Notes under the pieces: model-generated | The model's database searches: none | What the model was told of the DNA's origin: nothing | Seen by the model: only the letters and a program-made list of their open reading frames with translations | Made by a program: the position numbers and the translations under genes | Source: Bacteroidales bacterium | GTDB taxonomy: Bacteria; Bacteroidota; Bacteroidia; Bacteroidales; Prolixibacteraceae | Reading direction: 5' to 3' | Length of the DNA: 64,000 nucleotides | NCBI GenBank assembly: GCA_012719495.1 | Contig: JAAYAG010000060.1 | Location: forward strand, 1-64,000 | Shown here: piece after piece, positions 14,942 through 54,494 of the stretch | Layout of the letters: each line of letters opens with the position of its first letter | Numbering within the stretch: the stretch's first letter is position 1

Positions 14942-14979
14942 AAAAAAAGAGGTTGCCGAAAATGTACCCCGACAACCTC
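14942..14979 (-). terminator. Terminator hairpin downstream of the flotillin gene
   Basis: GAGGTTG…CAACCTC 7-bp stem flanked by an A-run (plus strand), i.e. a T-run on the minus strand. Confidence 0.5.
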
Positions 14980-14998
14980 ATTCTTATCTTAAAAGTGA

Positions 14999-16408: not shown

Positions 16409-16458
16409 GGTAAAAAATTTTGGGTTTCTATTTGTTTAAATAATTGGTGTTGTGTGTT

Positions 16459-17040: not shown

Positions 17041-17289
17041 AAGCGTTGTGTTTAGTTCCTGATTAAAAGTATATAGAATTTTTGAATCTTTTTCAACAAA
17101 AAATATTTTTTCTTAGTTAGTCGAACATTTTCTTGAATTCAACACGTTAAGCATCGCTATTCTATTTATTTTAATTACATCTACACATTAAACTCAACAC
17201 ATTAATTCTTTCAAAATGTATTTTCTAATCAGAAAATGAGTTTTTATGCTGTTTGACAGTTTTTTAAAAGAAAAGAAAATCATATATTT

Positions 17290-17739
17290 GTGATGGGAGA
17301 ATTTTTTAGATTAAGCATGAAAGTATTACAATTTATTGGGGGAATTGTATTTCTTTTCATTTTTGCTTCGTGTTCGCACAATGCAGAGATATACAATGGT
17401 AGCCTACCCGATGGGAGTGTGGGGATAAGCTACAAAGTTCAAAAAAAAGTAACTGACAAGTTGCTTCTTGAAGTCATTAATTTTGAAGATACCCGTTGCC
17501 CGGTTGGCGATGTTTGCAGTAACCCTGGCTATGTTGATGTAGAGATACGGGCTTCTTCTGGTATAGACATTACAAGTACAACCCTACGTTATAACGATTT
17601 TCAGCCTTGCGATTTAAGCCGCGACACTATTTTCAACTATGTGGTTGAGTTGGTTAAGGTAACTCCGTTCCCTTATGCTGACAAGCCTGCTCAAAATGCT
17701 GAAACATACCGTTTCGCTGTGGTTGTTGAGGAATTATAA
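17290..17739 (+). CDS. Hypothetical small lipoprotein
   Basis: Signal peptide with lipobox-like …FIFASC. 149 aa, with paired Cys (CPVGDVC, C…C). Confidence 0.4.
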   Translation: MMGEFFRLSMKVLQFIGGIVFLFIFASCSHNAEIYNGSLPDGSVGISYKVQKKVTDKLLLEVINFEDTRCPVGDVCSNPGYVDVEIRASSGIDITSTTLRYNDFQPCDLSRDTIFNYVVELVKVTPFPYADKPAQNAETYRFAVVVEEL

Positions 17740-17740
17740 T

Positions 17741-18886: not shown

Positions 18887-18984
18887 CTCTCTTAAGTATT
18901 TATTTCTTATGAAAACAAAACATTGCAAGCATTATGCCATCTTGTTTTCAAATTATTTTTGTCTCGTTACAAATATACGTTGTG

Positions 18985-24300: not shown

Positions 24301-26843
24301 CCTTCGTACGACCAGTTAATCTTCATTCCCACATAATCGGGGTATGGCGAGTAGGGTTTCGAGATGCTGTTGATGCTGAAATCGCCGCCCTCTTCAAAAA
24401 CTTTGGTTGTGAAACTTGCATTCAGAAATCCATTTACATTCTTGTTGGTTTTCAAGTCGAAGGTGATATCTGTTTTTCCCTCCTGATTAAGTTTTCCATC
24501 AAAAATAGTTTGGTTGTTGACCGTATTTCCACCGAAAGGCGTAGAGAAATCGTAATCTTTGAAATTGTCGAACTTGGGTGCTATTTGGCTGAATGACACA
24601 TCGACACGGGCAGCAAGGTTTTTGGCCGGCATTCCGTGCAACCATTTTGCCTCCAGTTTTCCTTTCGAACTTCTTTTTGCGGAGAGAATTTTATCGTTGA
24701 AACTTAAATCAATTTTCAGTCGGTTAGGTTTAACGGTTTCAACCTGAATGCTTTTGTTGAACTGGCTTCCACCGGCATTTACAACTAGCCGCCAGTTCCC
24801 GGTTGGGTCGTCAGGATTGGTCTTGAAATAGAACGGATAAATTGATTTTTCGCTCTTGTTCCTGACCATTTTCTGAACAAACTGACCTTTGGGGTTAAAT
24901 ACTTCCATTACAAGCGGATGCCCTTCGGGTAAGCTTTTCAGCTTGTCTTCGAGAATGAACGAAACGTAGACCGAATCGCCCGGGCGCCAAACACTGCGTT
25001 CGCCATAAATGAAGCCTTTCATACCCTTTTGAACGCTTACGCCTGAAACATCAAAGTTACTGAGCGACAGGCTGGTTCCATCGTCAATTTTCAGGTAGCC
25101 AATCTGCTTGTCTTTTTCGGCAATGACTAAAAATGGATCGAACTCAGTTTTCACCGAAACCATTCCTTCTGAGTTGGTTTTTGCTTTTGTAAGAAACTGG
25201 TTCTGAAAATCGTAGAATGAAATTTCTACGCCCGATTCAGGCTCGGCAGTTAGCAGGTTCGAAACGTAAATGTTGGTGTTTTTGTTCTGCCCTGTTTTTG
25301 CAATAATGCCAAAGTTAGAGCCTAATATGTTGCGTTTTAAGAATTTATAAGGCGAATAATATGCGTATTTGCAAGGATCATCGTTTTCATCCCACTCGTT
25401 GTAATAGGTGTAGAACACATCCGAGTACTCCTTATCGGGGTTTTCCTGTTCATCTTCAATTGGTACAAATTTGTTCGATTGTTCATCTTTCGATTCGCAA
25501 GGATAGGTCGAATACTCCTTCCGGAACCCAATTTCGATGTTGTAAATGGCACCGGGTTCCACGGTAATAATTTTTGTCAGGTCGAGGTTGAAAGCGTTCC
25601 AAGTGTTCAGATCTTTGGGTCCTTTGTTGGTCAAGTCGACCTTCATGCGTTTCACCGTGCGCCCAACCTGATGGAGGCTCCAGATATTGTCGAAATTCTG
25701 ATTTTGCAGAAATGAGTGGATGTTGTTCTTGAATATCTTGGTAATACGCACATCGACAGCGTTGAGCGAAGTAGCCTCGAATGGAAAATAGAGCCCGGTA
25801 CTCTGCGGCACAATAACCCCTTTCCCCAACAGCCTTATCTGAGGTTTCGTGCCTCCAAAATTGAGTTGTTCTATGTAGTTCGAACCAAGTATATATCCCA
25901 GTTCGCTTTCGATAGAAGCATTCAGTTTGAGCGTTTTTGTGCCTGTAATTTGTTCCGAAGGATAAATCTTCAACAAGTTCCGTTCAACCGAAACCTGGCT
26001 AATATTTTCGTTGTCGAGTTGGATCAAACCGCGTAAATCGATCTGATTTTGAATAGGATCTGAAAATGATATTTCAATATGCTGATCGGGATTATTGATG
26101 ACCTGAACCGAGGTTACAGCAAAATCTTTTAACGAAGGAACTTCAACTTTTATGGAGCCCTTCCCGTTTTCGAGGTCTATTTTTCCCCCGGCCCATTCAA
26201 CTTCAACCTCCGATTTCTGTTCTTTGCGCTTGATTTCTAAAACCCTAAAAGAGTGTGTGTTCGATTTTGCCTGGTGATTCCACAGAAGTGGCAGTTTGTC
26301 GCCATCTTGTTCGGCAGTAAAAATTTCTTCAATCTCTTTGTCGTCGATCAGGTCGGAAGTAACAATCTCGATGGGGAGTTCATACGTCTTGTCGTTTTTA
26401 TCGGAAATTGAGAGGCCGCGTTCCGAAACCCTTATCTGTTTGGTCGTTGTGTTGAAATTGAACGTCAGCGTTGAAAGCTGTTTCGACACTTTCATCAGTT
26501 TTGAAAGCTTCAGTTTGCCTTGGTACGACGCGTCCCAATCGAGCAAATTAGTTGGTTTGAATTCGATGGCGTCGGTATTTGCCCACACTGCTTTTCCATC
26601 AATTGAAGGGGAGAACGAAAGCACGGAGCTTGAAACTGTTGAACCAATTTCTTCTGATGAAACTAGCTCGGAGGTGAATTTGATCACAATTGCATCGGAG
26701 CGTTTTATTTGTCCCGATGTAACGCCGTACACAAACTCGTGAAACGACTCAATTGACGATGGTGTTCCGGCATCTCTCTTTTTGCATCCAACAAAAGCAA
26801 TCAGCAGGGTAATTGCAACGAATAGGATTGTTTTTAGCTTCAT
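21348..26843 (-). CDS. Bacterial alpha-2-macroglobulin family lipoprotein (YfhM-like), 1831 aa
   Basis: Lipoprotein signal MKLKTILFVAITLLIAFVGCKK. Thioester motif GCVEQ (…RYPHGCVEQTTSSVFPQ…). Very large multi-domain beta-rich protein. Stop TAA overlaps the pbpC ATG (TAATG). Confidence 0.85.
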   Translation of the reverse strand: MKLKTILFVAITLLIAFVGCKKRDAGTPSSIESFHEFVYGVTSGQIKRSDAIVIKFTSELVSSEEIGSTVSSSVLSFSPSIDGKAVWANTDAIEFKPTNLLDWDASYQGKLKLSKLMKVSKQLSTLTFNFNTTTKQIRVSERGLSISDKNDKTYELPIEIVTSDLIDDKEIEEIFTAEQDGDKLPLLWNHQAKSNTHSFRVLEIKRKEQKSEVEVEWAGGKIDLENGKGSIKVEVPSLKDFAVTSVQVINNPDQHIEISFSDPIQNQIDLRGLIQLDNENISQVSVERNLLKIYPSEQITGTKTLKLNASIESELGYILGSNYIEQLNFGGTKPQIRLLGKGVIVPQSTGLYFPFEATSLNAVDVRITKIFKNNIHSFLQNQNFDNIWSLHQVGRTVKRMKVDLTNKGPKDLNTWNAFNLDLTKIITVEPGAIYNIEIGFRKEYSTYPCESKDEQSNKFVPIEDEQENPDKEYSDVFYTYYNEWDENDDPCKYAYYSPYKFLKRNILGSNFGIIAKTGQNKNTNIYVSNLLTAEPESGVEISFYDFQNQFLTKAKTNSEGMVSVKTEFDPFLVIAEKDKQIGYLKIDDGTSLSLSNFDVSGVSVQKGMKGFIYGERSVWRPGDSVYVSFILEDKLKSLPEGHPLVMEVFNPKGQFVQKMVRNKSEKSIYPFYFKTNPDDPTGNWRLVVNAGGSQFNKSIQVETVKPNRLKIDLSFNDKILSAKRSSKGKLEAKWLHGMPAKNLAARVDVSFSQIAPKFDNFKDYDFSTPFGGNTVNNQTIFDGKLNQEGKTDITFDLKTNKNVNGFLNASFTTKVFEEGGDFSINSISKPYSPYPDYVGMKINWSYEGWKKLNIEENHVIKVATVDEDGKPVSLNGIQVKIYELEYSWWYDSNDENLASYAGTTHYTPVISKTISSVNGKAEFTIKPDEDMWGRHLMLVTSPNGHTSGQVIYFGWDWGRDRQNGGAQVLALVAEKTNYKVGEKVTIGFPANKNATALITFENGNGVIGQQWLKNLNSFTEYTFEATPAMSPNVYVSISLIQPHGQTVNDLPIRLYGVIPIMVEDPETRLQPVINMPAEVRPLKEFTINIKEKNRKAMDYTVAIVDEGLLDITNFKTPDPWGSFYAREALGVKSYDMYNYVMGSFGSRIESMFAVGGSNNGVDMSKKKAERFKPVVKVLGPFHLDANKEASHKVALPQYVGSVRTMVIAASEGKYGNAEKAVAVREPLMVLATLPRVLSPDETVDLPVTVFAMNESVKKVQVHISSNPNIQIIGRADTTIAFSSTGEKNISFRIKSASKQGFAKVKVEVQSGTEKSFNEIELDVRLPNLPETTSQFKLLAAGEKWVCEQSAFGIEGTNKLQLEISSLPPLNLGRRLEYLIRYPHGCVEQTTSSVFPQLYLPSLLSLSANDQLRVKNNVTAGIERLQRFQLANGGFTYWPGSSYVEEWASCYVGYFLLEAEKAGYLVPSNMKKKWLEYTSKAASQYSINSQYSYNNYIQAYRLYLLSVAGEPQVSAMNRLRTSSNLNNQTKWLLAGAYALASMKDAAYKLIDFRNMTPDKPDYECYGSELRDKGIILQTLVALKEWDQAAKVALEVSKSISTDDWYSTQSTAYSLVALSSFAVQTGSNDEINFKQTINGETTAIRSKAKFYSIEPQFNKSGNATIVVENSGKGSLFVNVFNTGAKKDVDLTSAEKGMQMEVKYFDSNMNPIDTKSLQQGTDFTAMVMVKNKTAARVKNIALSQLFPSGWEIINTRLAPGAGINKNSPFDYCDFRDDRVYIYFGLDSYESKTFTVNLNAAYCGEFIQSPVICSDMYDNNFMSKTPGRTVKVVKN

Positions 26844-37448: not shown

Positions 37449-38198
37449 TTATTTTTTTCTTGTCAGGTCTTTTAACCCGTTGATAATGGTTAATGGGTGG
37501 CACGGGTTTCCGGGGATATACAGATCGATAGGATACTTACTCAGAAAACTCCGGTCGATAGCCGGACTATCTCCAAAAATTCCACCACTAATGGCATCTG
37601 TTCCTGCCAGAACTATAATTTTAGGAGCAGGGGTTGCATCATAACAAAGTTGCACCGGTTCGGCCATGTTTTCCGATATGGGGCCTGTAATAAGAATCCC
37701 GTCGGCATGACGCGGCGAAGCAACAAAATCGATCCCAAAACGGCTCATATCGAATTGAACATTGTTGGCGGCATTGAGCTCCCACTCGCAACTGTTATCG
37801 CCTGCTGCTGATATTTGCCTAAGTTTTAACGATTGCCCCAATACTCGATGCACATCTGACCTCACTTTAGTAGGATCAACTTCAATGGTTCTATCTTCGC
37901 CTTCGGTTACAACGAGCCTTTCACGTATGTTGGTAGAAATTTTATAATCTTTGGTGAATTCAATTTTTGTTGGAAAACGCCTGGCACATTCACCACAAAA
38001 TGTGCATTTCCCCAAATCGATACGTACCGGCGATGTTTCAATGGCTCCTACCGGGCAAACCAACTGCAGCTCGTGTTCGTCAACTTTTTCGAGGCTAATA
38101 ACCGGCCGCCCCCTGAAAATTCCCGGAACCTTTGCCGAAGTAACATCGGGAATAAATTGCTTCCCCTGATGGTATACTATTTTTAAATTTTCTAACAT
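37449..38198 (-). CDS. Fusion of a single-cluster 4Fe-4S ferredoxin domain with a NuoB / [NiFe]-hydrogenase small-subunit-like domain (HyfH-HyfI-like); Cys ligands incomplete
   Basis: N-terminus CPVGAIE + CTFCGECARRFP, one cluster's worth of Cys. C-terminal NuoB-like SPRHADGILITGPISENMAEP…IIVLAGTDAISGG…IPGNPCHP. Canonical CCxxE and GxCxxxGG cysteines are replaced. Confidence 0.7.
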   Translation of the reverse strand: MLENLKIVYHQGKQFIPDVTSAKVPGIFRGRPVISLEKVDEHELQLVCPVGAIETSPVRIDLGKCTFCGECARRFPTKIEFTKDYKISTNIRERLVVTEGEDRTIEVDPTKVRSDVHRVLGQSLKLRQISAAGDNSCEWELNAANNVQFDMSRFGIDFVASPRHADGILITGPISENMAEPVQLCYDATPAPKIIVLAGTDAISGGIFGDSPAIDRSFLSKYPIDLYIPGNPCHPLTIINGLKDLTRKK

Positions 38199-38230
38199 GG
38201 CTCTGTGCTTCTTTTTAATCTTGCTGATAA

Positions 38231-39730
38231 CTACAAATCGTGACCAGCATACGAAAGGTTAAAACTCTTGTTGCAAATTGGAAAATCAGAAATTTCGTTA
38301 TTCCTTACCGCCAAGGCCAATGCCAGCCAATTATGGAACGAAGGATCTTTTATCTTGTAAATGAGCAACTCTCCTTTTTCATCGGTAATGGCACAATGGC
38401 ATATTTCGCCGCGCCAACCCTCAACCAACGCGATAGAAAATGCATTTGGCGAAGAATTTTCCAGATTATTTACCTCACTGGTAGCATCTGGCACATTGTC
38501 AAGCATTTCCTTAATGTATTTTATCGACTGCCTGATTTCGTTCCTCCGAATCTGGAAGCGGGAATATACATCGCCATGGTGCTTAATAGCTGGTTCATGT
38601 TTCATTTCGCTATACAGATAAAAAGGATGCGTAGAACGAATGTCCCGGGTTAGCCCGCTCATGCGTGCGGCCATTCCAACGGCACCTATCGAAAGTATAT
38701 CGTCATATGAAACAATCCCGGTTCTTTCAAACCTTGATAACGTACTTGGTAACCGGCGGATTTGTTCAACGATCTCTTCAAAGTCAGGTTCATATTCTGT
38801 AAAGATTTGCGCTAACCTTTCGGCAAGAGCCGGGGTAAAGGGGAACTGATTCCGGCCAGGCCTAATGAGCCCTTTCGACAAGCGGTTTCCACCCCATTCC
38901 TGCATAAAGTTTATCATTGGGGTACGCAAACGTCCAAGTACCGAACTCCCAAGCTGATAGGCTACATCGGTACACATGGCGCTCAAGTCGCCGGTATGAA
39001 TAGCAATCCGCTCCATCTCGAGAGCAAGAGTACGGGCAAATTGAATATCTTTTGATGGTTTAAACCCGCACAAACTTTCCCAAACCATCGAAAATGCAGT
39101 GGTATGACCTACAACAGTATCTCCTGTAATATTTTCGGCTAACGTTGTACGCTGCAACAGGCTTTTTTTATCGAGGAAAAGCTGTTCAACCCCACGGTGC
39201 TGAAAACCAAGCTGTATTTCAAGATGAAGAATTTGTTCACCATTACAAATAAACCTGAAGTGACCCGGCTCGATAACACCGGCATGAATTGGACCTACAC
39301 CCACCTCGTGAAGTTCTTCACTATCGATACTGTAAAACGGGTAGTTGGCAATGGTTTTCGATTTGTCGGCACGGTTAAACGGGTAACGTACCGGTTTTAA
39401 CCAAGGATGACCAACAAATCCAATCCCGAAATTTTCGTGAATCTCGCGCTCAAATTTCTCGAAGCATAAAAGCTCTTTTGATAACGAACGCAAGTTATCA
39501 TCATTATTTACCACACACGATAATACATAAATTTGATGGGTCAGATCGTCGGCAAGGCAACATATCAATTTAATTTTTCCATTCAGGCGATATCCAAAAT
39601 AATTGGCGCAATGCCTTTCGGTTTGCCCAGTCATCAATTTCGATATTTCATCGAAAAAAACAGGATAACTTACCTCAGGAATTTCGGCAATGCCAATGGT
39701 GGTATTATTTTCTATCTGTATGTAATTCAT
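38231..39730 (-). CDS. Fused NuoC/NuoD-like (hydrogenase-4 large-subunit HyfG-like) protein lacking [NiFe]-binding CxxC motifs
   Basis: 499 aa. NuoC-like N-terminus. NuoD/HycE-like core (GPIHAGVIEPGHFRF…GFQHRGVEQ). No CxxC pair anywhere in the protein. C-terminus DFPICNKS occupies the place of the DPCxxCxxR Ni/Fe ligand motif. Confidence 0.75.
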   Translation of the reverse strand: MNYIQIENNTTIGIAEIPEVSYPVFFDEISKLMTGQTERHCANYFGYRLNGKIKLICCLADDLTHQIYVLSCVVNNDDNLRSLSKELLCFEKFEREIHENFGIGFVGHPWLKPVRYPFNRADKSKTIANYPFYSIDSEELHEVGVGPIHAGVIEPGHFRFICNGEQILHLEIQLGFQHRGVEQLFLDKKSLLQRTTLAENITGDTVVGHTTAFSMVWESLCGFKPSKDIQFARTLALEMERIAIHTGDLSAMCTDVAYQLGSSVLGRLRTPMINFMQEWGGNRLSKGLIRPGRNQFPFTPALAERLAQIFTEYEPDFEEIVEQIRRLPSTLSRFERTGIVSYDDILSIGAVGMAARMSGLTRDIRSTHPFYLYSEMKHEPAIKHHGDVYSRFQIRRNEIRQSIKYIKEMLDNVPDATSEVNNLENSSPNAFSIALVEGWRGEICHCAITDEKGELLIYKIKDPSFHNWLALALAVRNNEISDFPICNKSFNLSYAGHDL

Positions 39731-39731
39731 G

Positions 39732-41159
39732 TCATTGAGGTAAAAGCATTATACTTTCTTTAATCAGTTCGACCAATTCGGCAGGCGGGTTAAGCCCCAA
39801 ATAAATGGCCAGTGCAAGCAGAACAAACTGCGAAAGAGATTCCCACGGGCTAATTTTCGGCACATTGCTATCGTCGAAATCAACTGGAGGAACAAAAAGG
39901 ATTTTAAGAATATTTTTTCCAAAAGCCCATATAATAATAGTGAGCAACAGAAGCAAAGCGGCAAGAACAATAATTTGCTTAGCCTCGAAAAGCGAGCGGA
40001 ATATCATGAATTCGCTCACAAAAAGACCCGAAGGGGGCATGGCTGTGGCACTAATGAAACCAGTGAGCAACACCATGGCACCGGCAGTATTATATTTGAA
40101 ATAATTTCCAACATTGTAAATACTTTTGTTCTGAAACACCCTATACAGCTGGGTGAACTGCAGAAATAAGCTTGACTTTACAAAAGCATGAAGAATAATG
40201 TGCAAAATGGCAGCATAATAGCCAACACCTCCGGCAGCCACACCCAACATAACCAATCCCATGTGCTCTATACCCGAATAGGCGAGCATACGTTTTATGT
40301 TCTTTACTTTAATCATATACACTGTCGATACAAAAACCGACAAGAAAGCAGCAATACCAATTACCATATTGGCCCAGTGGTGAAGCGGTGTATTGGCAAC
40401 CACAATATAAAACCTGAAGATGCCCACAAAACCAAGGTTCATCAGCACGCTCGAAAGCAAGGCTCCAACGGGTGCCGGGGCTTTGTCTTTAGCATCGATA
40501 CCGGCAGTAAACATTGGCACTAAGCCAAGCTTCGCCGTAAAACCAGTAAAAATAAACAAGAAAGCCAGGCGCAGCCAAAACGGGTTCAGTTTAGCACTAT
40601 TCGTAACAAGATTAGTGTAACTAAGATCCTGAGAACCTGCCTGTTCAAGAGCAAGGCTTAAAAACAGGATACCGATGAATACAAAGGTGATGCTTATAGC
40701 ACAAATAAATACATATTTCCAGGTTCCTTCGAGGGCTAATTTGTTCCGGTGATGGTATATTAAGGCAGAAGCACTCAAGGTGGTAATTTCGGTGAAAATC
40801 CAGGTAACGGCAATGTGATTGGCCAAATATCCAGCACTTATCGCTGTGATTAAAAGCACTATAGATGCATAATATATTGAACGGGTTTCGGGAGGTGCCG
40901 GTTGGTCCTCGAGGTAAATGTGACTATGAAAAATTGCAGCTACCGAAATAATACTCATTGTAACCAAGAGCAAGAATGCAAGCGAATCATAGGTAAAATA
41001 GGTTAAATCGGTACTCCTTAAGTTATTGTATGAATAGAATGTAAGTATCCATTGCAACACCAGAAACAGGCCAAGAAGCCCGAAGGTAAGTTGTTTGTTC
41101 CGGATGAAAAAGAGTCCGATTACTATTGAAAATGCTCCTATCAGATATATTCCAATCAT
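39732..41159 (-). CDS. NuoM/NuoN-like (HyfF/HyfD-like) proton-translocating antiporter-type subunit
   Basis: 475 aa, about 14 TM. Conserved antiporter-like core (…GIEHMGLVMLGVAAGG…). Confidence 0.7.
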   Translation of the reverse strand: MIGIYLIGAFSIVIGLFFIRNKQLTFGLLGLFLVLQWILTFYSYNNLRSTDLTYFTYDSLAFLLLVTMSIISVAAIFHSHIYLEDQPAPPETRSIYYASIVLLITAISAGYLANHIAVTWIFTEITTLSASALIYHHRNKLALEGTWKYVFICAISITFVFIGILFLSLALEQAGSQDLSYTNLVTNSAKLNPFWLRLAFLFIFTGFTAKLGLVPMFTAGIDAKDKAPAPVGALLSSVLMNLGFVGIFRFYIVVANTPLHHWANMVIGIAAFLSVFVSTVYMIKVKNIKRMLAYSGIEHMGLVMLGVAAGGVGYYAAILHIILHAFVKSSLFLQFTQLYRVFQNKSIYNVGNYFKYNTAGAMVLLTGFISATAMPPSGLFVSEFMIFRSLFEAKQIIVLAALLLLLTIIIWAFGKNILKILFVPPVDFDDSNVPKISPWESLSQFVLLALAIYLGLNPPAELVELIKESIMLLPQ

Positions 41160-41176
41160 TTGATCTGCTTTAACGG

Positions 41177-41809
41177 TTAATAATCCTTGAGGTTAGTAAG
41201 TTGCTCTACGTCAACATCTTTAAATACGTCTCCAATTTTATTGAGAAAAATGCCCAGAATGAGTACACTGGCAAAAATATCGAGCATAATGCCCAGGTTC
41301 ACCAAGTGCGGCATTTCGTTCCCCACAGCCAGCGAAAGCACAAAAACCCCGTTTTCAATAATCATATAGCCCATAACATGGGTAATAATTTTCCTTCGGG
41401 AAGCAATTATATACAAACCCGAAAATATGGTCGAAAGGGCTACAACAAAGAACATCTTATCCAGATGAGTATCTTTTATGCTGTTCGAAAGCAATATGGT
41501 TGCAATCACTATGGCTGTTGTTATCAGCAACGAAACAAAGTTGGGAAGATAAGGCTCAGCCTCTCGGGTGATATTGTTCCGCCTTAGCAGATATGCTAAA
41601 AACATAGGTACAGCCACCGCCTTGAAAACAATGGTCTCGAGCATGATCAACACCAAGTTCAACGTGTTAATCTCATTCAACTGAAGAAACACGACAAAGA
41701 AAAGCAACACGCCCTGAACTGCCAGTACTTTAGTGTACGACAACAGTCGGTTGGCTATCGAAAGATAGAATAGCGTGATGATGAAAACTATCAGAAGTAC
41801 GTCTATCAT
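41177..41809 (-). CDS. HyfE-like small membrane subunit of hydrogenase-4-type complexes
   Basis: 210 aa, 6-7 TM. C-terminus VDVEQLTNLKDY resembles the E. coli HyfE C-terminus (…LDVNNLTALKG, recalled from memory). Confidence 0.5.
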   Translation of the reverse strand: MIDVLLIVFIITLFYLSIANRLLSYTKVLAVQGVLLFFVVFLQLNEINTLNLVLIMLETIVFKAVAVPMFLAYLLRRNNITREAEPYLPNFVSLLITTAIVIATILLSNSIKDTHLDKMFFVVALSTIFSGLYIIASRRKIITHVMGYMIIENGVFVLSLAVGNEMPHLVNLGIMLDIFASVLILGIFLNKIGDVFKDVDVEQLTNLKDY

Positions 41810-41828
41810 TGTTTTACATTTTTTATCG

Positions 41829-42734
41829 TTAATTGAACTTCCCTAAAATGAGTATGGCTCCGAAGAATATCAAGAGCGAAACCGATGTGAGCGCCACAAT
41901 AAACTGTGCGTTATGGTTCATTCTGAAACGGGCCATAAACGATTCAATCAGCCCCACGACAACAGCCATAAGGAACTGGATAATAAAGAACAAGGGTATC
42001 GCATACTGATAATCTACCATCCCCACAAAAAGGTTTACAATGAGCGCTCCGTAAATGGCAAATTTCAAGTATCCGGCACTTAGCAAAAGTCCCAGATCGA
42101 AGCCACTGTTATCGAGGATCATAACTTCGTGTATCATGGTGAGTTCAAGGTGCGTTTTAGGATCGTCGATAGGCATACGGCTATTTTCAATCATAGCAAT
42201 CATTACCAGAACAAAAGTTGCCAGTGTAGCCAAGGCATAACTCAGGTACGAGCCAATATGCAATGCCGCAAATATTTCCTGAAAAGACGTATACCCTGTA
42301 AGCAAGGCAAATGAGCCCATAAGGATGAATAAAGCCGGTTCGGCAAACATCGAATACAATGCTTCGCGGCTGGCACCCATTCCCTCAAAACTACTTCCGG
42401 TGTCGAGTGCCGATATAATGCTGAAAAACTTGCCTAACGCCAAAACATATGCAAAAAAGATAAAATCGCAATTGAAACTAATCAACCCTTTTGATTGACC
42501 GAAAGGAACAACAAGCATAGCCATCACTACCGATGAAAAGTAGATTGTTGGTGCAATTTGAAAGATGATACTGCTTGTTTTGCTGTATACAGCCCCTTTT
42601 TTGAAAAGACGTATAACATCTTTGATTGGCTGCATAATTCCTGGTCCTTTCCTTCCCGAAGCAAGGCTTTTGGTGCGCACCACAATGCCAGTGAAAAAGA
42701 AGGCAGCTATTACAATTAAAAATAGGCTCAACAT
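41829..42734 (-). CDS. NuoH-like (HyfC/HycD-like) membrane subunit
   Basis: 301 aa polytopic. Position in the cluster and size match HyfC/NuoH. Confidence 0.55.
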   Translation of the reverse strand: MLSLFLIVIAAFFFTGIVVRTKSLASGRKGPGIMQPIKDVIRLFKKGAVYSKTSSIIFQIAPTIYFSSVVMAMLVVPFGQSKGLISFNCDFIFFAYVLALGKFFSIISALDTGSSFEGMGASREALYSMFAEPALFILMGSFALLTGYTSFQEIFAALHIGSYLSYALATLATFVLVMIAMIENSRMPIDDPKTHLELTMIHEVMILDNSGFDLGLLLSAGYLKFAIYGALIVNLFVGMVDYQYAIPLFFIIQFLMAVVVGLIESFMARFRMNHNAQFIVALTSVSLLIFFGAILILGKFN

Positions 42735-42736
42735 AA

Positions 42737-44764
42737 TTATAGTTGTTTTATAAATTCAAAAAAATCCAGAATCAATCCATATACCAACGGGATCATTATC
42801 AGTGAAATGATAAATATTATCCCGTATAATATCGAGAATTGCAATTTCCCGTTATTAAGGAATACAAACTTTCCTAAAAAGCTCTTAATTCCTCTTATTG
42901 GCCTGTCTATCAAGCTCTTTTCCAAACGATCATAAGGATGCGTCTTAAGGGCTGCATGTTCGGGGAAGATTCCCGATACAGGCTTTTCTTTTTGGCCAAT
43001 TAACAGCAAATGACCAAATAGTTTACTATAACTCCTTACATACGATGATGCGGTGTATTGTAACTTTGGTGTGGGTGAAACATATCCGCACCCCCAGGTA
43101 ACCGAAGATGTGGTAACCCTGTTTTTTGTGACCAACTTCCGCAGAAGGAACATCAACACAATAAGCACGATAAAACCTGTTGAAGCAAGTCCGATGTATT
43201 GCAATGTATCAGCAATACTTCCCTGAATTGGAGCAAACTCCCCTACCCTGTTTCCTGTGAGCACAGAAGTTGCATGGCTGACTACTCCAAAAAATCCCTG
43301 AGGAAAAATCCCTATACCAACAATAAGAAGAGCAATAAAATATAAAGGAATACGCTGAATAGCCGGAGCTTCATGTATTCCGTGTACGAATTTTTTCCTT
43401 GGTTCCCCTAAGAAAATTGTCCCAAATGCTTTGGTAAAACAAAAAAGGGCCAACCCTCCAATGAGCACAAGTGCCAGGGTTGAAAAAATAATCACAATAA
43501 GCGGGACGAGCGTAGCATTTTGTACCCATTGATATAAGCTGCTGTAAATCAAAAACTCAGAAACAAAACCATTCAGTGGCGGAATACCGCAAATGGCAAC
43601 AGCTGCTATAAGAAATAATAGGGTTGTGTGGGGCATTTTCTTAATAAGCCCGCCTAGATGCTCAATATTTAACGTATGAGTCGCCTGATAAACAATGCCT
43701 ACAGTATAAAACAGCAAGGATTTAAACAGTGCATGGTTTAAAGTGTGCAACAATGCCCCCGAAAAACCTAACCAGGCAACCAATTGATTACCATTGCCAA
43801 GGCCAATACACCCAATGCCTATCCCCATACCAATAATACCAATATTCTCGATACTATGATAAGCAAGTAACTTTTTAACATTGTGCTGAATAATTGCCAG
43901 CATTACTCCATATAACCCCGAGATGGCCGAAATAATCAGAATGAAATAGCCTATACTGGTATAGTCAGTTTTTATTAATACCAACATCCGCATAATTCCA
44001 TAAATCCCAATCTTAATAAGCACTCCCGACATGATTCCCGAAATATGGGTAGGAGCCGCCGGATGAGCATGGGGCAACCAGGTATGAAACGGGATAAAGC
44101 CCGCTTTGAAAGCAAAACCTATAAAGAAGCAAATGAAAAGGAAAAGACCAACCGAAGTGGGGTTCGACTGTGAATATTCAGTAATAGATGCAAAATCAAA
44201 ACTACCGGTTTTCACAGCAACCCAGATAAAACCCAGCATCAGAAAAAGAATAGAAACATGGGACTGAATCAGGTAATTAATACCCGCTTTCAATGTCGAC
44301 ATCTTATCTCCTTCAAAAATTACTGCAATAAATGCCGAAAGAGCCATCAGTTCCCAAGTAATGAGAAACACAAGGCTGTTCTGTATAACGCAAAGACTTA
44401 CAAGAGACAGGTGAAGCACAATGAATGCAATGCAGTGCAATGAAATCTGCTTTTGTTGCTCCCGGTATGCTTTAAGGTAGAAAATTCCATAAAAGCCCCC
44501 TGTAATAAAAACAATATTGATAATAAGAATAAACCATGCCGAAAGAGCATCAATCTGGAGCCTGATTGGGCCAGTTACCGCACTCCCGCCAAAAACATAT
44601 TCTTCGGCTCCTCCGACAATTGCGCTAATAGCTATCGCAGACGATAACCCGGCAACCAGCAAGAGTTCTAAATATGTAACTATTGCTTTTGCTTTCTCCT
44701 TCATAAAGGGGATGGCAACAACAGCCAACAAAGGCATCAGCAGATAAGCAGATATGTTACTCAT
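42737..44764 (-). CDS. NuoL-like (HyfB / MrpA-like) antiporter subunit, copy 2
   Basis: 675 aa. Conserved …WLPHAHPAAPTHISGIMSG… and …GIIGMGIGIG… antiporter motifs. Confidence 0.75.
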   Translation of the reverse strand: MSNISAYLLMPLLAVVAIPFMKEKAKAIVTYLELLLVAGLSSAIAISAIVGGAEEYVFGGSAVTGPIRLQIDALSAWFILIINIVFITGGFYGIFYLKAYREQQKQISLHCIAFIVLHLSLVSLCVIQNSLVFLITWELMALSAFIAVIFEGDKMSTLKAGINYLIQSHVSILFLMLGFIWVAVKTGSFDFASITEYSQSNPTSVGLFLFICFFIGFAFKAGFIPFHTWLPHAHPAAPTHISGIMSGVLIKIGIYGIMRMLVLIKTDYTSIGYFILIISAISGLYGVMLAIIQHNVKKLLAYHSIENIGIIGMGIGIGCIGLGNGNQLVAWLGFSGALLHTLNHALFKSLLFYTVGIVYQATHTLNIEHLGGLIKKMPHTTLLFLIAAVAICGIPPLNGFVSEFLIYSSLYQWVQNATLVPLIVIIFSTLALVLIGGLALFCFTKAFGTIFLGEPRKKFVHGIHEAPAIQRIPLYFIALLIVGIGIFPQGFFGVVSHATSVLTGNRVGEFAPIQGSIADTLQYIGLASTGFIVLIVLMFLLRKLVTKNRVTTSSVTWGCGYVSPTPKLQYTASSYVRSYSKLFGHLLLIGQKEKPVSGIFPEHAALKTHPYDRLEKSLIDRPIRGIKSFLGKFVFLNNGKLQFSILYGIIFIISLIMIPLVYGLILDFFEFIKQL

Positions 44765-46767
44765 TTTAAAACATTTAATCCAGTGAGGACAACTATAAGT
44801 ACCACAAACAAAATTCCATATAATACATACGATTGCATACGGCCATTTTGTATAAACTTGAAATAATTGGCACTAAACACTATCCGTTGAGTAACAAAGT
44901 TAAAAATATAGTACTCAAAAAAGTCTTTATAGTGCGATACATATTTTCGCTTCTTTGGAAATATTTCACCATCAGAAAGTTCTGCATATTTCTTCTCCTC
45001 TATCAGTAAAAAACTGAATACCTTTCCCAACGGTTTCGAAAACGATTTCCCGGTATACTGCATTTTGCTATTGGGGGCAACATAGGAGCAGCCCCAGGTT
45101 CCTTCGGTTTGCTGTTCCCGGTTTTTCACCATTAGCGAACGAATTCCCCAAATTATTCCTACAACGACCAACAATAAAATAAAATAATAGTTAACAGCAA
45201 CAATATTGTCTGAATAACTGGCAACTGACGAAAAAATGGCAATATTCTTCAAGCCGTCTTGAAGTATACATTGAATACTATTCAGGAAAAAGCGCGGAAA
45301 GAAAGCAACAAGAAGCATTACTGCTACAATAATGTATTGCGGAAACAGCATAATTTTCGACACTTCTTGCGGAACTGTATGCAATTTTTTCCGTGGTGAG
45401 CCAAGAAAAACCACCCCAAATGTTTTCGAAAAGGTAAGGATAGAAAGCCCTCCAATGAGGCTAAGCCCTGCAAATGATAAAATTACAAGACTGGTTTGTG
45501 TAATATCACCCGTTTTCAACGCTTCAATCAGGCCGTTATATAAAATGAATTCCGACACAAATCCGTTGAAGGGTGGCATACCCCCAATGGCAATAGCGCC
45601 AATCAGGAACAATATTGCCGTTTTGGGCATTTGCTTTATCAACCCGCCCAATTTCTCCATATCGCGGGTGTGGGTTTGCTGATACACTGAACCGGCTGAG
45701 TAGAAAAGCAGCGATTTGAATAGCGAATGGTTCAGCACATGCAACAGGGCGCCCGAGAATCCTAAAAAGAACAGTAACGGGGAGTTGTTGCCGATGCCAA
45801 TCAAGCCTAGCCCAATCCCAATGCCAATGATGCCAATATTTTCGATGGTACAATAAGCCAACATCCGTTTAAAATCGCGGTGAACAGCTGCATTTAGTAT
45901 TCCGTATAACCCGGTGAGCACCGATACCGAAAGAATAATTTCGCCGAGCATCAAAAAATCGGATTCAAGAAAAGTAATGACCCTGAATATTCCGTAAATA
46001 CCCAGCTTTACAATTACACCCGACATTACACCCGACACGTGCGACGGAGCCGCCGGATGCGCATGGGGCAACCAGCTATGAACAGGAATAAAGCCGGCTT
46101 TTATTCCAAATCCTACGAAAAAGATCAGAAAAAGCCATATGTTGTTATTATTGGCAAAGAATGTTGAAAAAGCATCGAAACTAAATGAGCCAGTAGTGGC
46201 ATATACCCAGATAAACCCTATTGTGAGAAGAATAACACTGATATGCATCTGAACCAGGTAATTAAGCCCAGCTTTCAGGGTTTTTGGTTTGTGCCCGTCG
46301 AAAATTACAAGAAGCATCGACGACAGCGACATTATTTCCCAAGCTACCAGGAAAGCAAAACTATGCTGCAACATACAAACCCAAACCATTGATAGCTGAA
46401 AAACAACATACAACGACCAATGAAGGGAAAGTTTAGCAGAGTTGTTTTGATAACTTCGAAGATAGCCAATGCCATAAAATGCACCCGTAACTGATGTAAA
46501 GTTGATAATAAGTATGAACCAAGCTGAGAGGCCGTCGATTTTTATCGGGATACTTCCCAAAAAAGAACCGGCAAAAATTGATACAGAACTTGTTGCCCCG
46601 CCTAATGCCTGAAGTGCAGGAATACTTGTTGACAATGCAGTAATAACACTAGCCAGAGCGGCAATATATGCTTTGCTATTTGGTTTGACTAACACGATAA
46701 AAACTATCGCAATCAGAGCAGTTGCCCACGACAGGTTCAATAATAATTCAGTACTTATCATTATCAC
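44761..46767 (-). CDS. NuoL-like (HyfB / MrpA-like) antiporter subunit, copy 1
   Basis: 668 aa. WLPHAHPAAPSHVSGVMSG motif. 4-nt ATGA overlap with copy 2. Confidence 0.75.
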   Translation of the reverse strand: MIMISTELLLNLSWATALIAIVFIVLVKPNSKAYIAALASVITALSTSIPALQALGGATSSVSIFAGSFLGSIPIKIDGLSAWFILIINFTSVTGAFYGIGYLRSYQNNSAKLSLHWSLYVVFQLSMVWVCMLQHSFAFLVAWEIMSLSSMLLVIFDGHKPKTLKAGLNYLVQMHISVILLTIGFIWVYATTGSFSFDAFSTFFANNNNIWLFLIFFVGFGIKAGFIPVHSWLPHAHPAAPSHVSGVMSGVIVKLGIYGIFRVITFLESDFLMLGEIILSVSVLTGLYGILNAAVHRDFKRMLAYCTIENIGIIGIGIGLGLIGIGNNSPLLFFLGFSGALLHVLNHSLFKSLLFYSAGSVYQQTHTRDMEKLGGLIKQMPKTAILFLIGAIAIGGMPPFNGFVSEFILYNGLIEALKTGDITQTSLVILSFAGLSLIGGLSILTFSKTFGVVFLGSPRKKLHTVPQEVSKIMLFPQYIIVAVMLLVAFFPRFFLNSIQCILQDGLKNIAIFSSVASYSDNIVAVNYYFILLLVVVGIIWGIRSLMVKNREQQTEGTWGCSYVAPNSKMQYTGKSFSKPLGKVFSFLLIEEKKYAELSDGEIFPKKRKYVSHYKDFFEYYIFNFVTQRIVFSANYFKFIQNGRMQSYVLYGILFVVLIVVLTGLNVLK

Positions 46768-47025
46768 AGATCAGTAAAAATACTATTTCGGATGCAAGGT
46801 AAGGGATTATTCTGTACTCTCAGAAAGAAGAAAGCTATTTATAACCCCAATAAATTCTCATTTTGGATAAAACTAGAAAATGAGGGGGCGAATTTAGAAA
46901 ATTAAGGATATCGAGCATGCTAATTATGAGATGTTTTTTTTATATAATCTGTGGAGTTAATGTTTGATTAAGCTAAAAATAGGTTCAACCTAAAGAAATT
47001 AAGTTTTATATTTGCGCCTCAATTA

Positions 47026-47098
47026 GCCTTTTTAGCTCAGTTGGTAGAGCAGCTCATTCGTAATGAGCAGGTCGCGGGTTCGAGTCCCGTGAAAGGCT
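47026..47098 (+). tRNA. tRNA-Thr (anticodon CGT)
   Basis: Acceptor GCCTTTT/GAAAGGC, D-arm AGCTCAGTTGGTAGAGC, anticodon stem-loop GCTCA-TTCGTAA-TGAGC, T-loop TTCGAGT. A hairpin plus T-run follows at about 47127-47160. Confidence 0.85.
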
Positions 47099-47393
47099 CT
47101 GAGACAACCATCTAAATTTATTATAAAGCCTGAAATCAATGATTTTCGGGCTTTTTTATGTTTCATTGACAACAACTCAGTAATAGGAACTATTTATTGT
47201 TGTATGGATTGTTGAGTCAATGTGCTGCCATTCAGAACTTAATCCATAAGCTTTATTAATCGGTAAGTTATTCGCATTTTTAACAATTATCGTTAAATTC
47301 ACCTCTTCAAATTAACCAATATAAATCGAACCAATTGAAATTTGAAATACGTGAATTAATCTACTTTAGCTAAAGACTTAATAACTTATACTT

Positions 47394-52175: not shown

Positions 52176-54494
52176 ATGAAACCATTTATCAATCAAATTA
52201 AAGGAAACCGCTGGCTGAATGGGTTATTTGGCCTCGAAAAAGAGAATATCCGTGTCGATCAGCAAGGAGTTTTCGCACAAACACCTCATCCTGCTTCTTT
52301 TGGCGACAGGGTGAAACATCCGTTTATTACGACCGATTTTTCAGAAAGCCAGATCGAGATGATTACGCCGCCATTGTCTTCCATCTCTGAAGCGCTGGGC
52401 TTTCTCGAAACCATTCACGACCTGGTAAGTCTTGAGCTGAACGGAGAACTTCTTTGGCCACAAAGCATTCCTCCGGTTATTCCTGCCGAGGAATCGATAC
52501 CGATTGCCCGTTACTCAAACCTGGGCAAAAAAGAAGAGGAGTACCGCAAGAACCTCGCTTTGAAATACGGGCGCAAAAAACAGGCACTCTCCGGCATTCA
52601 TTTCAACATTTCGCTCAACGAAAACCTGCTTCACCAACTAAATCGGGAGGTTGAACCAACTGTGCCTTTTACCGAATTTACCGATTCGGTCTACCTGAAA
52701 ATTACCCGGCAGCTTTTGCGCTACCGCTGGCTTTATGTGTTGTTGTTTGGCAGCAGCCCTGTTGTTGATCCAAGTTTCGACCTGAAATGTCGTAGCCTGC
52801 CCATCTACCTCAATACAAAGTCGTATGCACTTTCGTTCCGGAACAGCTGTTTTGGATATGGTAACCTCGAAGAGCTTTTCCCCGACTATCAATCGGTAAG
52901 CGGATACAAACAAAGCATCGAAACAATGGTGAAAACCGGAAAGATTTCGGCACAAAAAGAACTGTATGCTTCGGTCAGACCAAAGTTTCTGAAGGATTCC
53001 GAGTCGGTTTCGTATGTCGAGGTAAGGTTTATCGACATCAACCCGCTGAGCAAGATTGGTATTACCCCCGAAATGCTGCAATTTATTCACTGGCTTGCCA
53101 TTTATGGCTTGTTAACCGACGAACAGGACGACTTTGTCCCAGACTTTCAGTCAATAGCAAGCCGAAACCATGAAAACATTTCGCACAACGGACTGCACAA
53201 CGATATTACGGTCATCTCTTCGTCGGGCGAAGTGGTAAACGTGTGGGACGAAGCCCGCCGCATCATCAGCTCAATGACCGAACTGTACAGCAAGCTTGAG
53301 ATTGAAAATAGCGGTTACCGAAACATGCTCGACTATGTTAGTGCGTTGGCCAATGACCCGGCAAAGCGTGATGTACACCAGATTATTGCCGGGACTGAAG
53401 AGAAAGGGTACATTGCATTTCATCTCGAAAAAGCCCGTCAGTATTTAGCCGAAAGCCAAAAAAACAGCTTCAGCTTCAAGGGGTTTGAAGACCTTGAACT
53501 TTCGACCCAACTTGTGCTGCGCGAAGCAGTCAGAAGGGGTGTTGCATTTGAACTGCTCGACCGTGAAGAAAACTTTGTCCGCCTTAGTCGCGACGGGAAT
53601 GTGCAGTACATTCAGCAGGCAACCAAAACTTCGCTCGATAATTATGCCGGAATTCTGGCCATGGAAAACAAAGTAGTGACAAAGAAAATACTTGACGGCC
53701 AAGGAATACGGGTGCCAAAGGGGATGAACTATTCCGATGCACAAACGGCTCTGTCCGATTTCAGCCTTTTTGAGGGACAAGCAATCGTCATCAAGCCCAA
53801 AACAACCAACTTTGGCAAGGGCATCACCATTTTGAAAGAGAATACCAATGCCACCGTTTATGAACGAGCGGTTGCCATTGCTTTTGAAGCGGACAACAAC
53901 ATTCTGATCGAAGAATTTATTGCAGGCAATGAGTTCCGCATTTTTGTAATGGACAATGACGTGGTGGGAATACTGCATCGTGTTCCGGCCAACGTAACCG
54001 GAAACGGTGACCTGACAATCGGGGAGCTGGTGGCTATAAAGAACGAAGATCCCTTGCGGGGAAAAGGTTATCGGACACCGCTCGAGAAGATTAATCTGGG
54101 CGAGGCCGAAGAGATGTTCCTCGCTTTGCAGGGAAAAACATTCGAAACCATTCCGGCCAATGGTGAAACCGTCTTTCTGCGCGAGAATTCGAACATCAGC
54201 ACCGGTGGCGACAGCATCGACTTTACCGACGAGATACCTGAATCGTACAAGAAAATTGCCGTGCAGGCAACACAAGCACTGAACGTCAGAATCACGGGGC
54301 TCGATATGATCATAGCCGATTACACACAGGAGGCCAATGCCGAAAACTATGCTATTATTGAGATGAATTTCAACCCGGCAATTCACATTCATTGCCATCC
54401 ATACAAAGGAAAAAACCGCAGGCTGAACGAAAAACTGCTCGATATGCTGGGCTTTGCCGCACCTGTTGCATTGGGTTCGCAACACAATTTGTGA
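52176..54494 (+). CDS. gshAB: Bifunctional glutamate--cysteine ligase / glutathione synthetase (GshF/GshAB type)
   Basis: 772 aa. N-terminal GshA-like domain (…HPFITTDFSESQIEMITPP…). C-terminal ATP-grasp domain (…EFIAGNEFRIFVMDNDVVG…). Confidence 0.8.
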   Translation: MKPFINQIKGNRWLNGLFGLEKENIRVDQQGVFAQTPHPASFGDRVKHPFITTDFSESQIEMITPPLSSISEALGFLETIHDLVSLELNGELLWPQSIPPVIPAEESIPIARYSNLGKKEEEYRKNLALKYGRKKQALSGIHFNISLNENLLHQLNREVEPTVPFTEFTDSVYLKITRQLLRYRWLYVLLFGSSPVVDPSFDLKCRSLPIYLNTKSYALSFRNSCFGYGNLEELFPDYQSVSGYKQSIETMVKTGKISAQKELYASVRPKFLKDSESVSYVEVRFIDINPLSKIGITPEMLQFIHWLAIYGLLTDEQDDFVPDFQSIASRNHENISHNGLHNDITVISSSGEVVNVWDEARRIISSMTELYSKLEIENSGYRNMLDYVSALANDPAKRDVHQIIAGTEEKGYIAFHLEKARQYLAESQKNSFSFKGFEDLELSTQLVLREAVRRGVAFELLDREENFVRLSRDGNVQYIQQATKTSLDNYAGILAMENKVVTKKILDGQGIRVPKGMNYSDAQTALSDFSLFEGQAIVIKPKTTNFGKGITILKENTNATVYERAVAIAFEADNNILIEEFIAGNEFRIFVMDNDVVGILHRVPANVTGNGDLTIGELVAIKNEDPLRGKGYRTPLEKINLGEAEEMFLALQGKTFETIPANGETVFLRENSNISTGGDSIDFTDEIPESYKKIAVQATQALNVRITGLDMIIADYTQEANAENYAIIEMNFNPAIHIHCHPYKGKNRRLNEKLLDMLGFAAPVALGSQHNL

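Follow-up and report, generated by a model that had tools for sequence, protein, structure and literature searches.

What can a complex-I-like membrane complex do once the ligands of its catalytic metal site and of the adjoining iron-sulfur (Fe-S) cluster have been replaced? This question is raised by a locus in a 64,000-nt stretch of DNA (here, the window) from a Bacteroidales bacterium (Prolixibacteraceae; assembly GCA_012719495.1, contig JAAYAG010000060.1, positions 1–64,000), where seven co-directional open reading frames (ORFs) on the (−) strand occupy positions 37449–46767. These are exactly the coordinates at which a preliminary description of the window had placed a seven-gene hyf/complex-I-like cluster, and Pfam and NCBIfam matches agree with that description. 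Judged from its sequence, the cluster encodes a Bacteroidota-specific variant of the Ehr complexes (short for energy-converting-hydrogenase-related), which occur widely, are related to complex I and membrane hydrogenases, and have no function established in the literature searched. Two features distinguish the variant: its Fe-S chain is severed, and one of its antiporter-like subunits is duplicated. The same literature yielded no functional or structural study of Ehr, which had no known function as of 2023, and no description of a severed-chain Bacteroidota variant, so that the locus is rightly called uncharacterized.

The large subunit, EhrL (38231..39730, [−] strand; 499 aa), consists of a NuoC-like domain fused to a HycE/NuoD-like domain. 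Among solved structures, it matched HycE (7z0s_E; 6e-37), MbhL (2e-27), and, weakly, MbsL (7e-15); it also matched Pfam Complex1_49kDa (3e-33), and its AlphaFold model (predicted local distance difference test [pLDDT], 80.8) had HycE as the top fold match (template-modeling score, 0.78). The preliminary description had held that this subunit contains no CxxC pair and cannot ligate a NiFe center, which was borne out: no C-x-x-C motif occurs anywhere in EhrL, and alignment with HycE revealed substitutions at all four [NiFe] cysteine positions (T202, T205, S493, and G496). Specifically, T202-G-D-T205 (39116..39127, [−] strand; coordinates checked by translation) stands in place of the N-terminal CGxC motif (CGIC in HycE), while S493-Y-A-G496 (38243..38254, [−] strand), which lies within the signature NKSFNLSY.G.DL, stands in place of the C-terminal C-x-x-C, with DPCYSC of HycE corresponding to NLS493-Y-A-G496. 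The HMMER alignment of the two proteins ends at residue 495, and the last four residues were extended by hand; the placement of G496 opposite the second cysteine therefore depends on this extension. Alignment thus restored a ligand cysteine at none of the four positions, a possibility that the preliminary description had itself raised, and the group 4 [NiFe]-hydrogenase motifs L1 (RxCGxCxxxH) and L2 (DPCxxCxxH/R) were absent from aligned EhrL. Among 80 EhrL orthologs, H149, E154, H157, G203, D204, and E218 are invariant, and H209 is conserved in 79. G203 aligns with the Tyr of the LDY motif in the bovine 49 kDa subunit, which we take to be the quinone-site tyrosine of complex I. Based on the ligand alignment, by which we rejected a hydrogenase identity, the nickel-iron site is gone from EhrL, and a complex built on it could not be a hydrogenase.

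The small subunit, EhrS (37449..38198, [−] strand; 249 aa), fuses a HycF/NuoI-like ferredoxin remnant to a HycG/MbhJ/NuoB-like domain. It matched Pfam Oxidored_q6 (5e-20), weakly Fer4, and the structures of MbhJ (5e-24) and HycG (3e-19); these two proteins were also the top fold matches of its AlphaFold model (pLDDT, 81.8), and the N-terminal half of a canonical EhrS relative matched HycF at 4e-13. The earlier claim that the Fe-S cysteines of this subunit have been lost proved only partly correct. For the proximal [4Fe-4S] cluster, which marks group 4 [NiFe]-hydrogenases and is lacking in EhrS, it is largely right: in alignment with MbhJ and HycG, the CxxC motif reads D134-N-S-C137, GxC has become D201, and PGC has become N231, although C137 remains. 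This former proximal-cluster site spans 37506..37799 on the (−) strand (D134 and C137, 37788–37799; D201, 37596–37598; N231, 37506–37508), and the replacement residues are conserved among 77 Bacteroidota orthologs, the set to which all EhrS counts refer (D134, 77/77; D201, 76/77; N231, 76/77; C137, 72/77). A further cysteine of the window protein, C233 (37500–37511, PGNPCHP), lies two residues past the lost PGC cysteine; we rejected it as a stand-in, as the position is not conserved (mostly Ala in orthologs, 54/77) and the residue is idiosyncratic to this genome.

The claim fails for the ferredoxin-like half, where a four-cysteine set that had been overlooked is retained (37986..38057, [−] strand; coordinates checked). 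It comprises C48, the "CP" cysteine of motif 1 (76/77), and C65-x2-C68-x2-C71 of motif 2 (each 77/77), and is therefore near-invariant, a term that we reserve for positions at least 97% conserved. The first three motif-1 cysteines and the last motif-2 cysteine have been lost. The four that are kept suffice for one [4Fe-4S] cluster. In the 2×[4Fe-4S] ferredoxin fold, each cluster is bound by three cysteines of one motif and a fourth from the other; the pattern in EhrS therefore amounts to the clean loss of one cluster, with the other fully kept. The ligands of N6b in Thermus Nqo9 are the second-motif cysteines plus the first-motif CP, and we take the retained cluster to be, like N6b, the middle one of a three-cluster chain, located beside the former proximal cluster.

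Next, we asked how far this loss extends among relatives. The preliminary description had read the loss of Fe-S cysteines as a match to Ehr complexes, but the opposite was found: 115 of the 120 best EhrS profile matches keep all 12 cysteines (three [4Fe-4S] clusters' worth), none of the 120 lacks a proximal-cluster cysteine, and a few lack some of the distal-cluster cysteines. In one of these, the distal set is missing just as in the window protein, but the four proximal cysteines are all present. Similarly, the four proximal cysteines are kept in seven of eight more distant loci, six of which have all 12 (motifs GGCNGCE, G[A/T]CAISGG, PGCP, and two CxxCxxCxxxC). The same pattern as in the window clade was found in a second Bacteroidota lineage (locus L089; 43% identical, six-gene operon), where D, A, E, and W occupy the proximal positions and the distal set is gone but the middle set survives, indicating that the loss is old and lineage specific. 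On the evidence of these alignments, Fe-S ligand loss is confined to Bacteroidota lineages rather than being a general Ehr trait, and the residues that took the place of the cysteines have since been strongly constrained. EhrS thus lacks the complete Fe-S chain of the other Ehr members examined, a feature that falls outside the published Ehr definition and marks the variant.

The Ehr assignment itself was upheld, as the replacement motifs are shared with the published Ehr and Hyq families. The cluster combines a large subunit homologous to group 4 hydrogenases and NuoD, the absence of [NiFe] cysteines, and an operon of antiporter-, NuoH-, HyfE-, and NuoB-like genes. EhrL has >8,000 homologs at the cluster level, and the best 120 are 70–100% identical, and the named ones among them belong to metagenome-assembled genomes of Bacteroidales, Prolixibacteraceae, or Bacteroidota. 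When 50%-identity representatives were searched exhaustively, 530 clusters were returned at E ≤ 1e-30, and nearly all of the ~130 full-length representatives among the best 150 lack the four [NiFe] cysteines, carrying x-G-D-[ST] for CGxC and NKSFNLSY[C/S/A]G.DL for the C-terminal motif. Matches at 43–48% identity in a profile search came from Melainabacteria/Gastranaerophilales, Spirochaetota, Ignavibacteria (Melioribacter and Rosettibacter), and Zhuqueibacterota, while true hydrogenases with four cysteines (RICGVC...NKSFELCYSCTDR) first appeared at ~34% identity. By this similarity ranking, the cluster groups with lineages whose complexes have been published as Ehr (Melainabacteria and Spirochaetota, 43–48%) rather than with cysteine-bearing relatives (~34%).

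Ehr was reportedly named by Coppi in 2005 in Geobacter sulfurreducens (GSU0739-45), and Marreiros et al. are said to have surveyed Ehr complexes in 2013. Such complexes have been reported in Melainabacteria, Margulisbacteria, comammox Nitrospira, candidate phyla radiation bacteria, and ammonia-oxidizing archaea, and those of Melainabacteria cluster with Spirochaetes sequences (PMC6349859). The window cluster shares with them the gene set (antiporter-like, NuoH-like, HyfE-like, antiporter-like, large, and small subunits) and the motifs x-G-D-[ST] and NKSFNLSY.G.DL. The Geobacter cluster, compared here by its published description, likewise spans seven loci and has an EhrA-1. In contrast to the canonical Ehr members examined, which have all 12 small-subunit Fe-S cysteines, the window clade has one cluster set only; furthermore, its HyfB-like gene is duplicated, and the gene for a helix-turn-helix (HTH) and phosphotransferase system (PTS) EIIA protein that precedes the operon in 6 of 10 more distant loci is absent.

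If the redox wiring has been lost, are the ion-translocating parts still intact? The cluster encodes five membrane subunits, three of which matched Pfam Proton_antipo_M (668, 675, and 475 aa). EhrA-1 (44761..46767, [−] strand; 668 aa, with a possible alternative ATG start at 46761) is a HyfB/HycC/MbhH-like antiporter-like subunit (Proton_antipo_M, 1e-55; NCBIfam hydrogenase 4 subunit B, 2e-152, below cut-off) that matched HycC (7e-57) and MbhH (1e-54) in the PDB, and its E144, K223, K254, K351, and E406 are invariant in 58 orthologs. EhrA-2 (42737..44764, [−] strand; 675 aa) is a second HyfB-like subunit with the same Pfam and NCBIfam matches and an invariant E138, K220, K251, K348, and E403 (61 orthologs). 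The two are 44% identical and pair with each other in a neighbor-joining tree, with the single copy of L089 as their sister, which argues for a duplication within the lineage and against EhrA-2 being the equivalent of HyfD. EhrD (39732..41159, [−] strand; 475 aa), a HyfF/NuoN-like antiporter-like subunit (Proton_antipo_M, 5e-39; NCBIfam hydrogenase 4 subunit F, 5e-62, below cut-off), has an invariant E124, K210, K328, and E383 (75 orthologs); motif comparison with subunits A and B places Asn241 at the presumed position of the lysine of transmembrane helix 8.

The remaining two membrane subunits are EhrB (41829..42734, [−] strand; 301 aa), which is NuoH/HyfC-like (Pfam NADHdh, 8e-36), and EhrC (41177..41809, [−] strand; 210 aa), which is HyfE-like and resembles NuoK in its C-terminal half (NCBIfam hydrogenase 4 membrane subunit, 8e-21; Pfam Oxidored_q2, residues 119–208). 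In EhrB, which would form the joint of the peripheral and membrane arms, E183, E197, and E203 are invariant, and E117 is found in 61/64 orthologs; in EhrC, E58 and E152 are invariant, and E165 is found in 70/71. The Lys/Glu relays of the antiporter-like subunits are thus intact, which backs a putative role in ion translocation. Together, the seven genes would yield a complex-I/Hyf-like assembly of three antiporter-like subunits, a NuoH-like and a HyfE-like subunit, and a HycE/HycG-like arm.

Conservation across the orthologs was not limited to the membrane arm. Near-invariant positions make up 42% of EhrB, the most conserved membrane subunit, 38–39% of the large and HyfE-like subunits, and 19–25% of the antiporter-like subunits. 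Across phyla, the large and small subunits rank as the most conserved, also when the cluster-poor Bacteroidota forms are compared; the peripheral arm is therefore under selection and not vestigial. These patterns show strong purifying selection on the relay residues, the NuoH-like joint, and the peripheral arm. Gene order is conserved as well. A genome scan with one genome per species gave 570 confirmed matches, and the best 80 loci were fetched (labels include Prolixibacteraceae, Paludibacter, Lentimicrobiaceae, Salinivirgaceae, Draconibacterium, and Chitinophagaceae). All seven genes were found in the same order, at 47–89% identity, in every sufficiently long locus of the 80, a check on synteny across Bacteroidota that the preliminary description had proposed. 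All named matches are metagenome-assembled genomes, no cultured isolate carrying the variant was identified among them, and the variant is abundant in anaerobic Bacteroidales of sediments, lakes, and sludge. When the 667 flanking ORFs of the 80 loci were clustered, no flanking family occurred in >9 loci, cluster fragments aside; the operon therefore has no conserved neighbor, in keeping with the view of the module as self-contained.

Public annotation gives the large subunit as "NADH dehydrogenase subunit" or "NADH-quinone oxidoreductase subunit C" (a further routine mis-annotation of the variant is "Ni,Fe-hydrogenase III large subunit"), labels that would suit part of an ordinary nuo operon or a functionless, decaying relic. 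We give these explanations next to no credence. The Pfam matches of the cluster as a whole are Proton_antipo_M, NADHdh, Oxidored_q2, Complex1_30kDa with Complex1_49kDa, and weak Fer4 with Oxidored_q6. In NCBIfam, four of the top models are those of hydrogenase-4 subunits B (twice), E, and F, and the other three are NuoH, NuoD, and NuoB; the top family matches overall are to Hyf, Hyc, and Mbh, with the Nuo models far below their cut-offs. The hydrogenase-4 scores, too, fall short (HyfB, 509 versus a cut-off of 667; HyfF, 210 versus 610; HyfE, 75 versus 136), and because all NCBIfam scores are well below the curated cut-offs, no protein of the cluster is an equivalog of the named subunit. NuoA, NuoJ, NuoE, NuoF, NuoG, and a separate NuoI are absent from the cluster. 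An ordinary or split nuo operon was rejected on these family scores, the subunit content, and the conserved seven-gene synteny (64–89% identity across the 80 fetched loci), and a decaying relic on conservation, as 38–42% of the positions in the joint and peripheral subunits are near-invariant.

It is also very improbable that the cluster encodes a cryptic hydrogenase of the type claimed in Azorhizobium, the Hyq "endo-hydrogenase." Deletion of Azorhizobium hyqRBCEFGI impaired diazotrophic growth, hyq-dependent H2 evolution has been reported (PMC2650096, PMC3357923), and a Rhizobium plasmid large subunit (SGDS and NKSFNCSYSGHDL) bears the same signature as EhrL. However, the support from Hyq is physiological rather than enzymological, and Hyq keeps an N2-type cluster, whereas the four Ni/Fe ligands and the proximal cluster are missing here; moreover, the ORFs scanned in the window included no hyp genes, and HydDB lists Ehr as hydrogenase homologs that do not metabolize H2. 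The Hyq systems of Azorhizobium and Rhizobium do resemble the cluster in the order of their six structural genes and in the large-subunit signature without [NiFe] ligands. They differ in their small subunit, which is plain NuoB-like (177 aa, four cysteines, no ferredoxin domain) while EhrS is fused and ligand-poor; in their B-C-E-F-G-I gene set, with a single HyfB-like gene where the cluster has two; in the short XRE-type HTH gene that precedes them; and in being nif-regulated and reported to handle H2.

The cluster was also compared with better-known systems. E. coli Hyf/Hyc (7z0s) provides the best sequence and fold matches (HycE, HycG, HycF, and HycC/HyfB) and broadly the same gene order. 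In this respect, the hyfB-C-(D)-E-F-G-H-I order proposed earlier holds in outline; the actual order is B-B′-C-E-F-G-(H/I fused), with the second antiporter gene being a duplicate. Unlike Hyf/Hyc, the cluster has no NiFe site and no proximal or distal cluster, and its HycF and HycG equivalents are fused. Pyrococcus Mbh (6cfw) and Mbs (formerly Mbx; 6u8y) share the complex-I-like architecture, with an arm homologous to MbhL/MbhJ. In them, three clusters are kept and an Mrp-type Na+/H+ module (MbhA-G) is present, which the seven-gene cluster lacks; Mbs also shows that a relative of hydrogenases can be adapted to a different substrate. Mrp antiporters themselves share with the cluster MrpA/D-like subunits bearing the same Glu/Lys relay but have no peripheral arm, and they need MrpB, E, F, and G, whereas the cluster has an arm and none of those genes. 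Their likeness to the mechanism favored below, as complex-I-type ion modules that reduce no substrate, is a functional analogy and does not make the cluster a member. Compared with complex I, the N2 ligands are replaced in EhrS, Gly203 of EhrL occupies the presumed quinone Tyr position, and, besides the lack of NuoA, NuoJ, NuoE, NuoF, and NuoG, NuoI is present only as a fused remnant.

How, then, might the complex work? Because no electron wire appears to reach the large-subunit pocket, we infer that it is neither a hydrogenase nor a through-conducting oxidoreductase. The reading that we favor, though tentatively and with less than even confidence, is an ion-translocating complex without through-electron transfer to a substrate. 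H+ or Na+ would be translocated through the intact Lys/Glu relays, with no electrons passed to a substrate, and the peripheral arm would serve as a non-redox coupling or gating element, possibly centered on the Asp204/His pocket of EhrL and the Asp134/Asp201/Asn231 site of EhrS; the remaining [4Fe-4S] cluster may be a structural or redox-sensing cofactor. With respect to the "ion-translocating redox module" of the preliminary description, the invariant relay residues back the first half, while "redox" is doubtful for the window variant because the proximal cluster is gone.

Several observations weigh against this reading. The near-invariant four-cysteine set of EhrS would also suit a redox role; canonical Ehr keeps three clusters, which suggests a redox function in the ancestor; three-cluster and cluster-poor Ehr types have identical pocket motifs in the large subunit; and a partner may possibly be encoded elsewhere in the genome. 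In addition, the identity of the retained cluster, and the gap of >20 Å that would follow from it, are presumed from solved structures. A redox-driven ion pump would agree with the view of the preliminary description. A redox-driven ion pump, in which a partner encoded elsewhere (ferredoxin or a formate dehydrogenase [FDH] module) docks on the ferredoxin-like remnant, would accommodate the conserved four-cysteine set, the strongly conserved peripheral arm, and the three clusters of canonical Ehr complexes. It would also agree with reports that EhrA-1, EhrC, EhrL, and EhrS of Geobacter are more abundant on formate (PMC7894505), with the FDH-Ehr complex proposed for Margulisbacteria and Saganbacteria (PMC6349859), and with molybdenum cofactor (Moco) biosynthesis genes beside a Melainabacteria cluster (see below). 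We nevertheless regard such a pump as unlikely. The proximal ligands are now Asp, Asp, and Asn, with the fourth (C137) dispensable in 5/77 orthologs, so the remaining cluster is a dead end relative to the large-subunit pocket; the NiFe site is missing; Gly stands at the presumed quinone tyrosine position; and no conserved redox neighbor gene was found in the 80 loci.

A further possibility is coupling of the ion gradient to an event in the former NiFe pocket that is not redox, either chemistry or the binding of a substrate; vectorial CO2 hydration in the manner of DabAB or CupA would be one instance. Complex-I-type modules drive non-redox CO2 hydration elsewhere, and DabAB and the cyanobacterial NDH-1 CupA modules offer a functional analogy, although homologs of DabA and CupA are absent here. 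Invariant polar residues at the old ligand sites (EhrL D204, T205, and H209; EhrS D134, D201, and N231) would fit such coupling, as would the NuoH-like joint being the most conserved membrane subunit, which suits pocket-membrane coupling, and pocket motifs that are unchanged with or without the Fe-S wire. Against this, Pfam revealed no carbonic-anhydrase-like or other catalytic domain, no recognizable metal-binding motif was found, no substrate-related gene lies nearby, and the idea is wholly inferential; we consider it as unlikely as the redox pump. The boldest reading would be a complex-I-type machine without any electron transfer, in which the arm lets an event other than redox, at the former NiFe and proximal sites, be coupled to the ion gradient across hundreds of Bacteroidota genomes. 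The event might be the binding or chemistry of a small ligand or cation, such as vectorial CO2/bicarbonate conversion, or ion sensing or gating; we hold this reading to be doubtful and rather improbable.

The Bacteroidota clade constitutes a natural experiment, in which the electron path to the pocket is severed although the pumping parts and the arm are under strong selection. An active complex would mean that the coupling machinery of complex I can be put to uses besides reducing a substrate; alternatively, Ehr in general may be able to do without the Fe-S chain in its core function. If there is indeed no electron transfer, the variant would represent, in nature, complex I coupling in a "redox-dead" form. 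On a practical level, mis-annotation of the variant can distort metabolic reconstructions from metagenomes.

The surroundings of the cluster in the window were as described earlier. Neighboring ORFs within the cluster are separated by gaps or overlaps of ≤32 bp, a tRNA-Thr gene lies upstream (47026–47099), and DUF1573, DMT, and esterase genes lie downstream. The intervening upstream region (46768..47025, [−] strand) is, from its position only, the presumed operon promoter region; in a sigma-70 consensus scan, it did not differ from shuffled sequence, but this consensus does not cover Bacteroidota promoters. No hyp, formate dehydrogenase, CO dehydrogenase, or nuo gene was present among the larger ORFs scanned in the 64-kb window, which agrees with the reported lack of adjacent hyp, formate dehydrogenase, and CO dehydrogenase genes, and HyfA/HycB, HyfD, FdhF, and HycI were likewise absent from the window.

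Neighboring genes in more distant loci were varied. In 6 of 10 such loci, the operon is preceded by a gene for a 222–244 aa protein with an excisionase-type HTH and a PTS EIIA-2 (PtsN-like) domain, on the same strand and within ~20 bp of the first operon gene (L081:4361–5041, L083:4348–5022, L084:2339–3007, L085:2353–3027, and L086:2348–3022; the sixth place is listed without DNA). The proteins are 46–73% identical and share a GIAIPH motif; no homolog was found in the window or the 80 Bacteroidota loci. EIIA-Ntr proteins regulate K+ transporters in proteobacteria, and we regard the gene as a lead toward ion homeostasis, not as evidence. In the Melainabacteria locus L082 (12368–15639), MoeA, MoaA-like, MoaC, MOSC, and MoaB-like genes lie directly downstream of the Ehr operon; these Moco genes fit the published FDH-Ehr idea for the Melainabacteria group. 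The small-subunit gene is absent after the large-subunit gene in L085 (9812–14794), where SMC/AAA ATPase and Type ISP restriction-modification genes are found instead, and lies upstream of the HTH-EIIA gene in L086 (433–2273), beside an Old-Yellow-Enzyme-type flavoprotein gene. A Variovorax plasmid (L091) carries two Ehr/Hyf-like clusters (3725–11009 and 14421–19248) ~3.4 kb apart, the first with a fused small subunit that has all cysteines.

Two irregularities were noted in large-subunit regions of Bacteroidota loci. The genes for the large and the small subunit are 32 bp apart in the window, against spacers of 60–830 bp in 36 related loci. Five long spacers (L021:11501–12080, L026:6200–6668, L069:3667–4174, L070:5048–5546, and L078:11501–12007) hold a low-GC insert with an ORF of ~115–121 aa (MEKKN.ILDKS.EFALEII...), which presumably resembles the four-helix-bundle "intervening sequence" proteins, whereas the other long spacers examined (~30 further loci have them) are non-coding. 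In a Salinivirgaceae locus (L022:591–2110), the large-subunit frame stops early and continues in another ORF (MAIHAGDLSAICTD...), which suggests that the gene is frameshifted or a pseudogene or that the assembly is wrong at this place.

Elsewhere in the window, genes for a fumarate reductase/succinate dehydrogenase-type flavoprotein (10340–12280) and iron-sulfur subunit (9570–10331) suggest a quinone-linked respiratory chain in this organism; the adjoining ORF of the same region (9570–12987), which encodes 229 aa (12298–12987) and has no Pfam match, may be the membrane anchor. At 18985–26843, a PBP1C-type penicillin-binding protein gene (851 aa) adjoins a gene for a bacterial alpha-2-macroglobulin (1831 aa); since the two ORFs overlap by 193 bases, one start codon is probably located further downstream. 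Finally, a 772 aa protein encoded at 52176–54494 combines a glutamate-cysteine ligase domain with an ATP-grasp domain and resembles GshF-type bifunctional glutathione synthetase.

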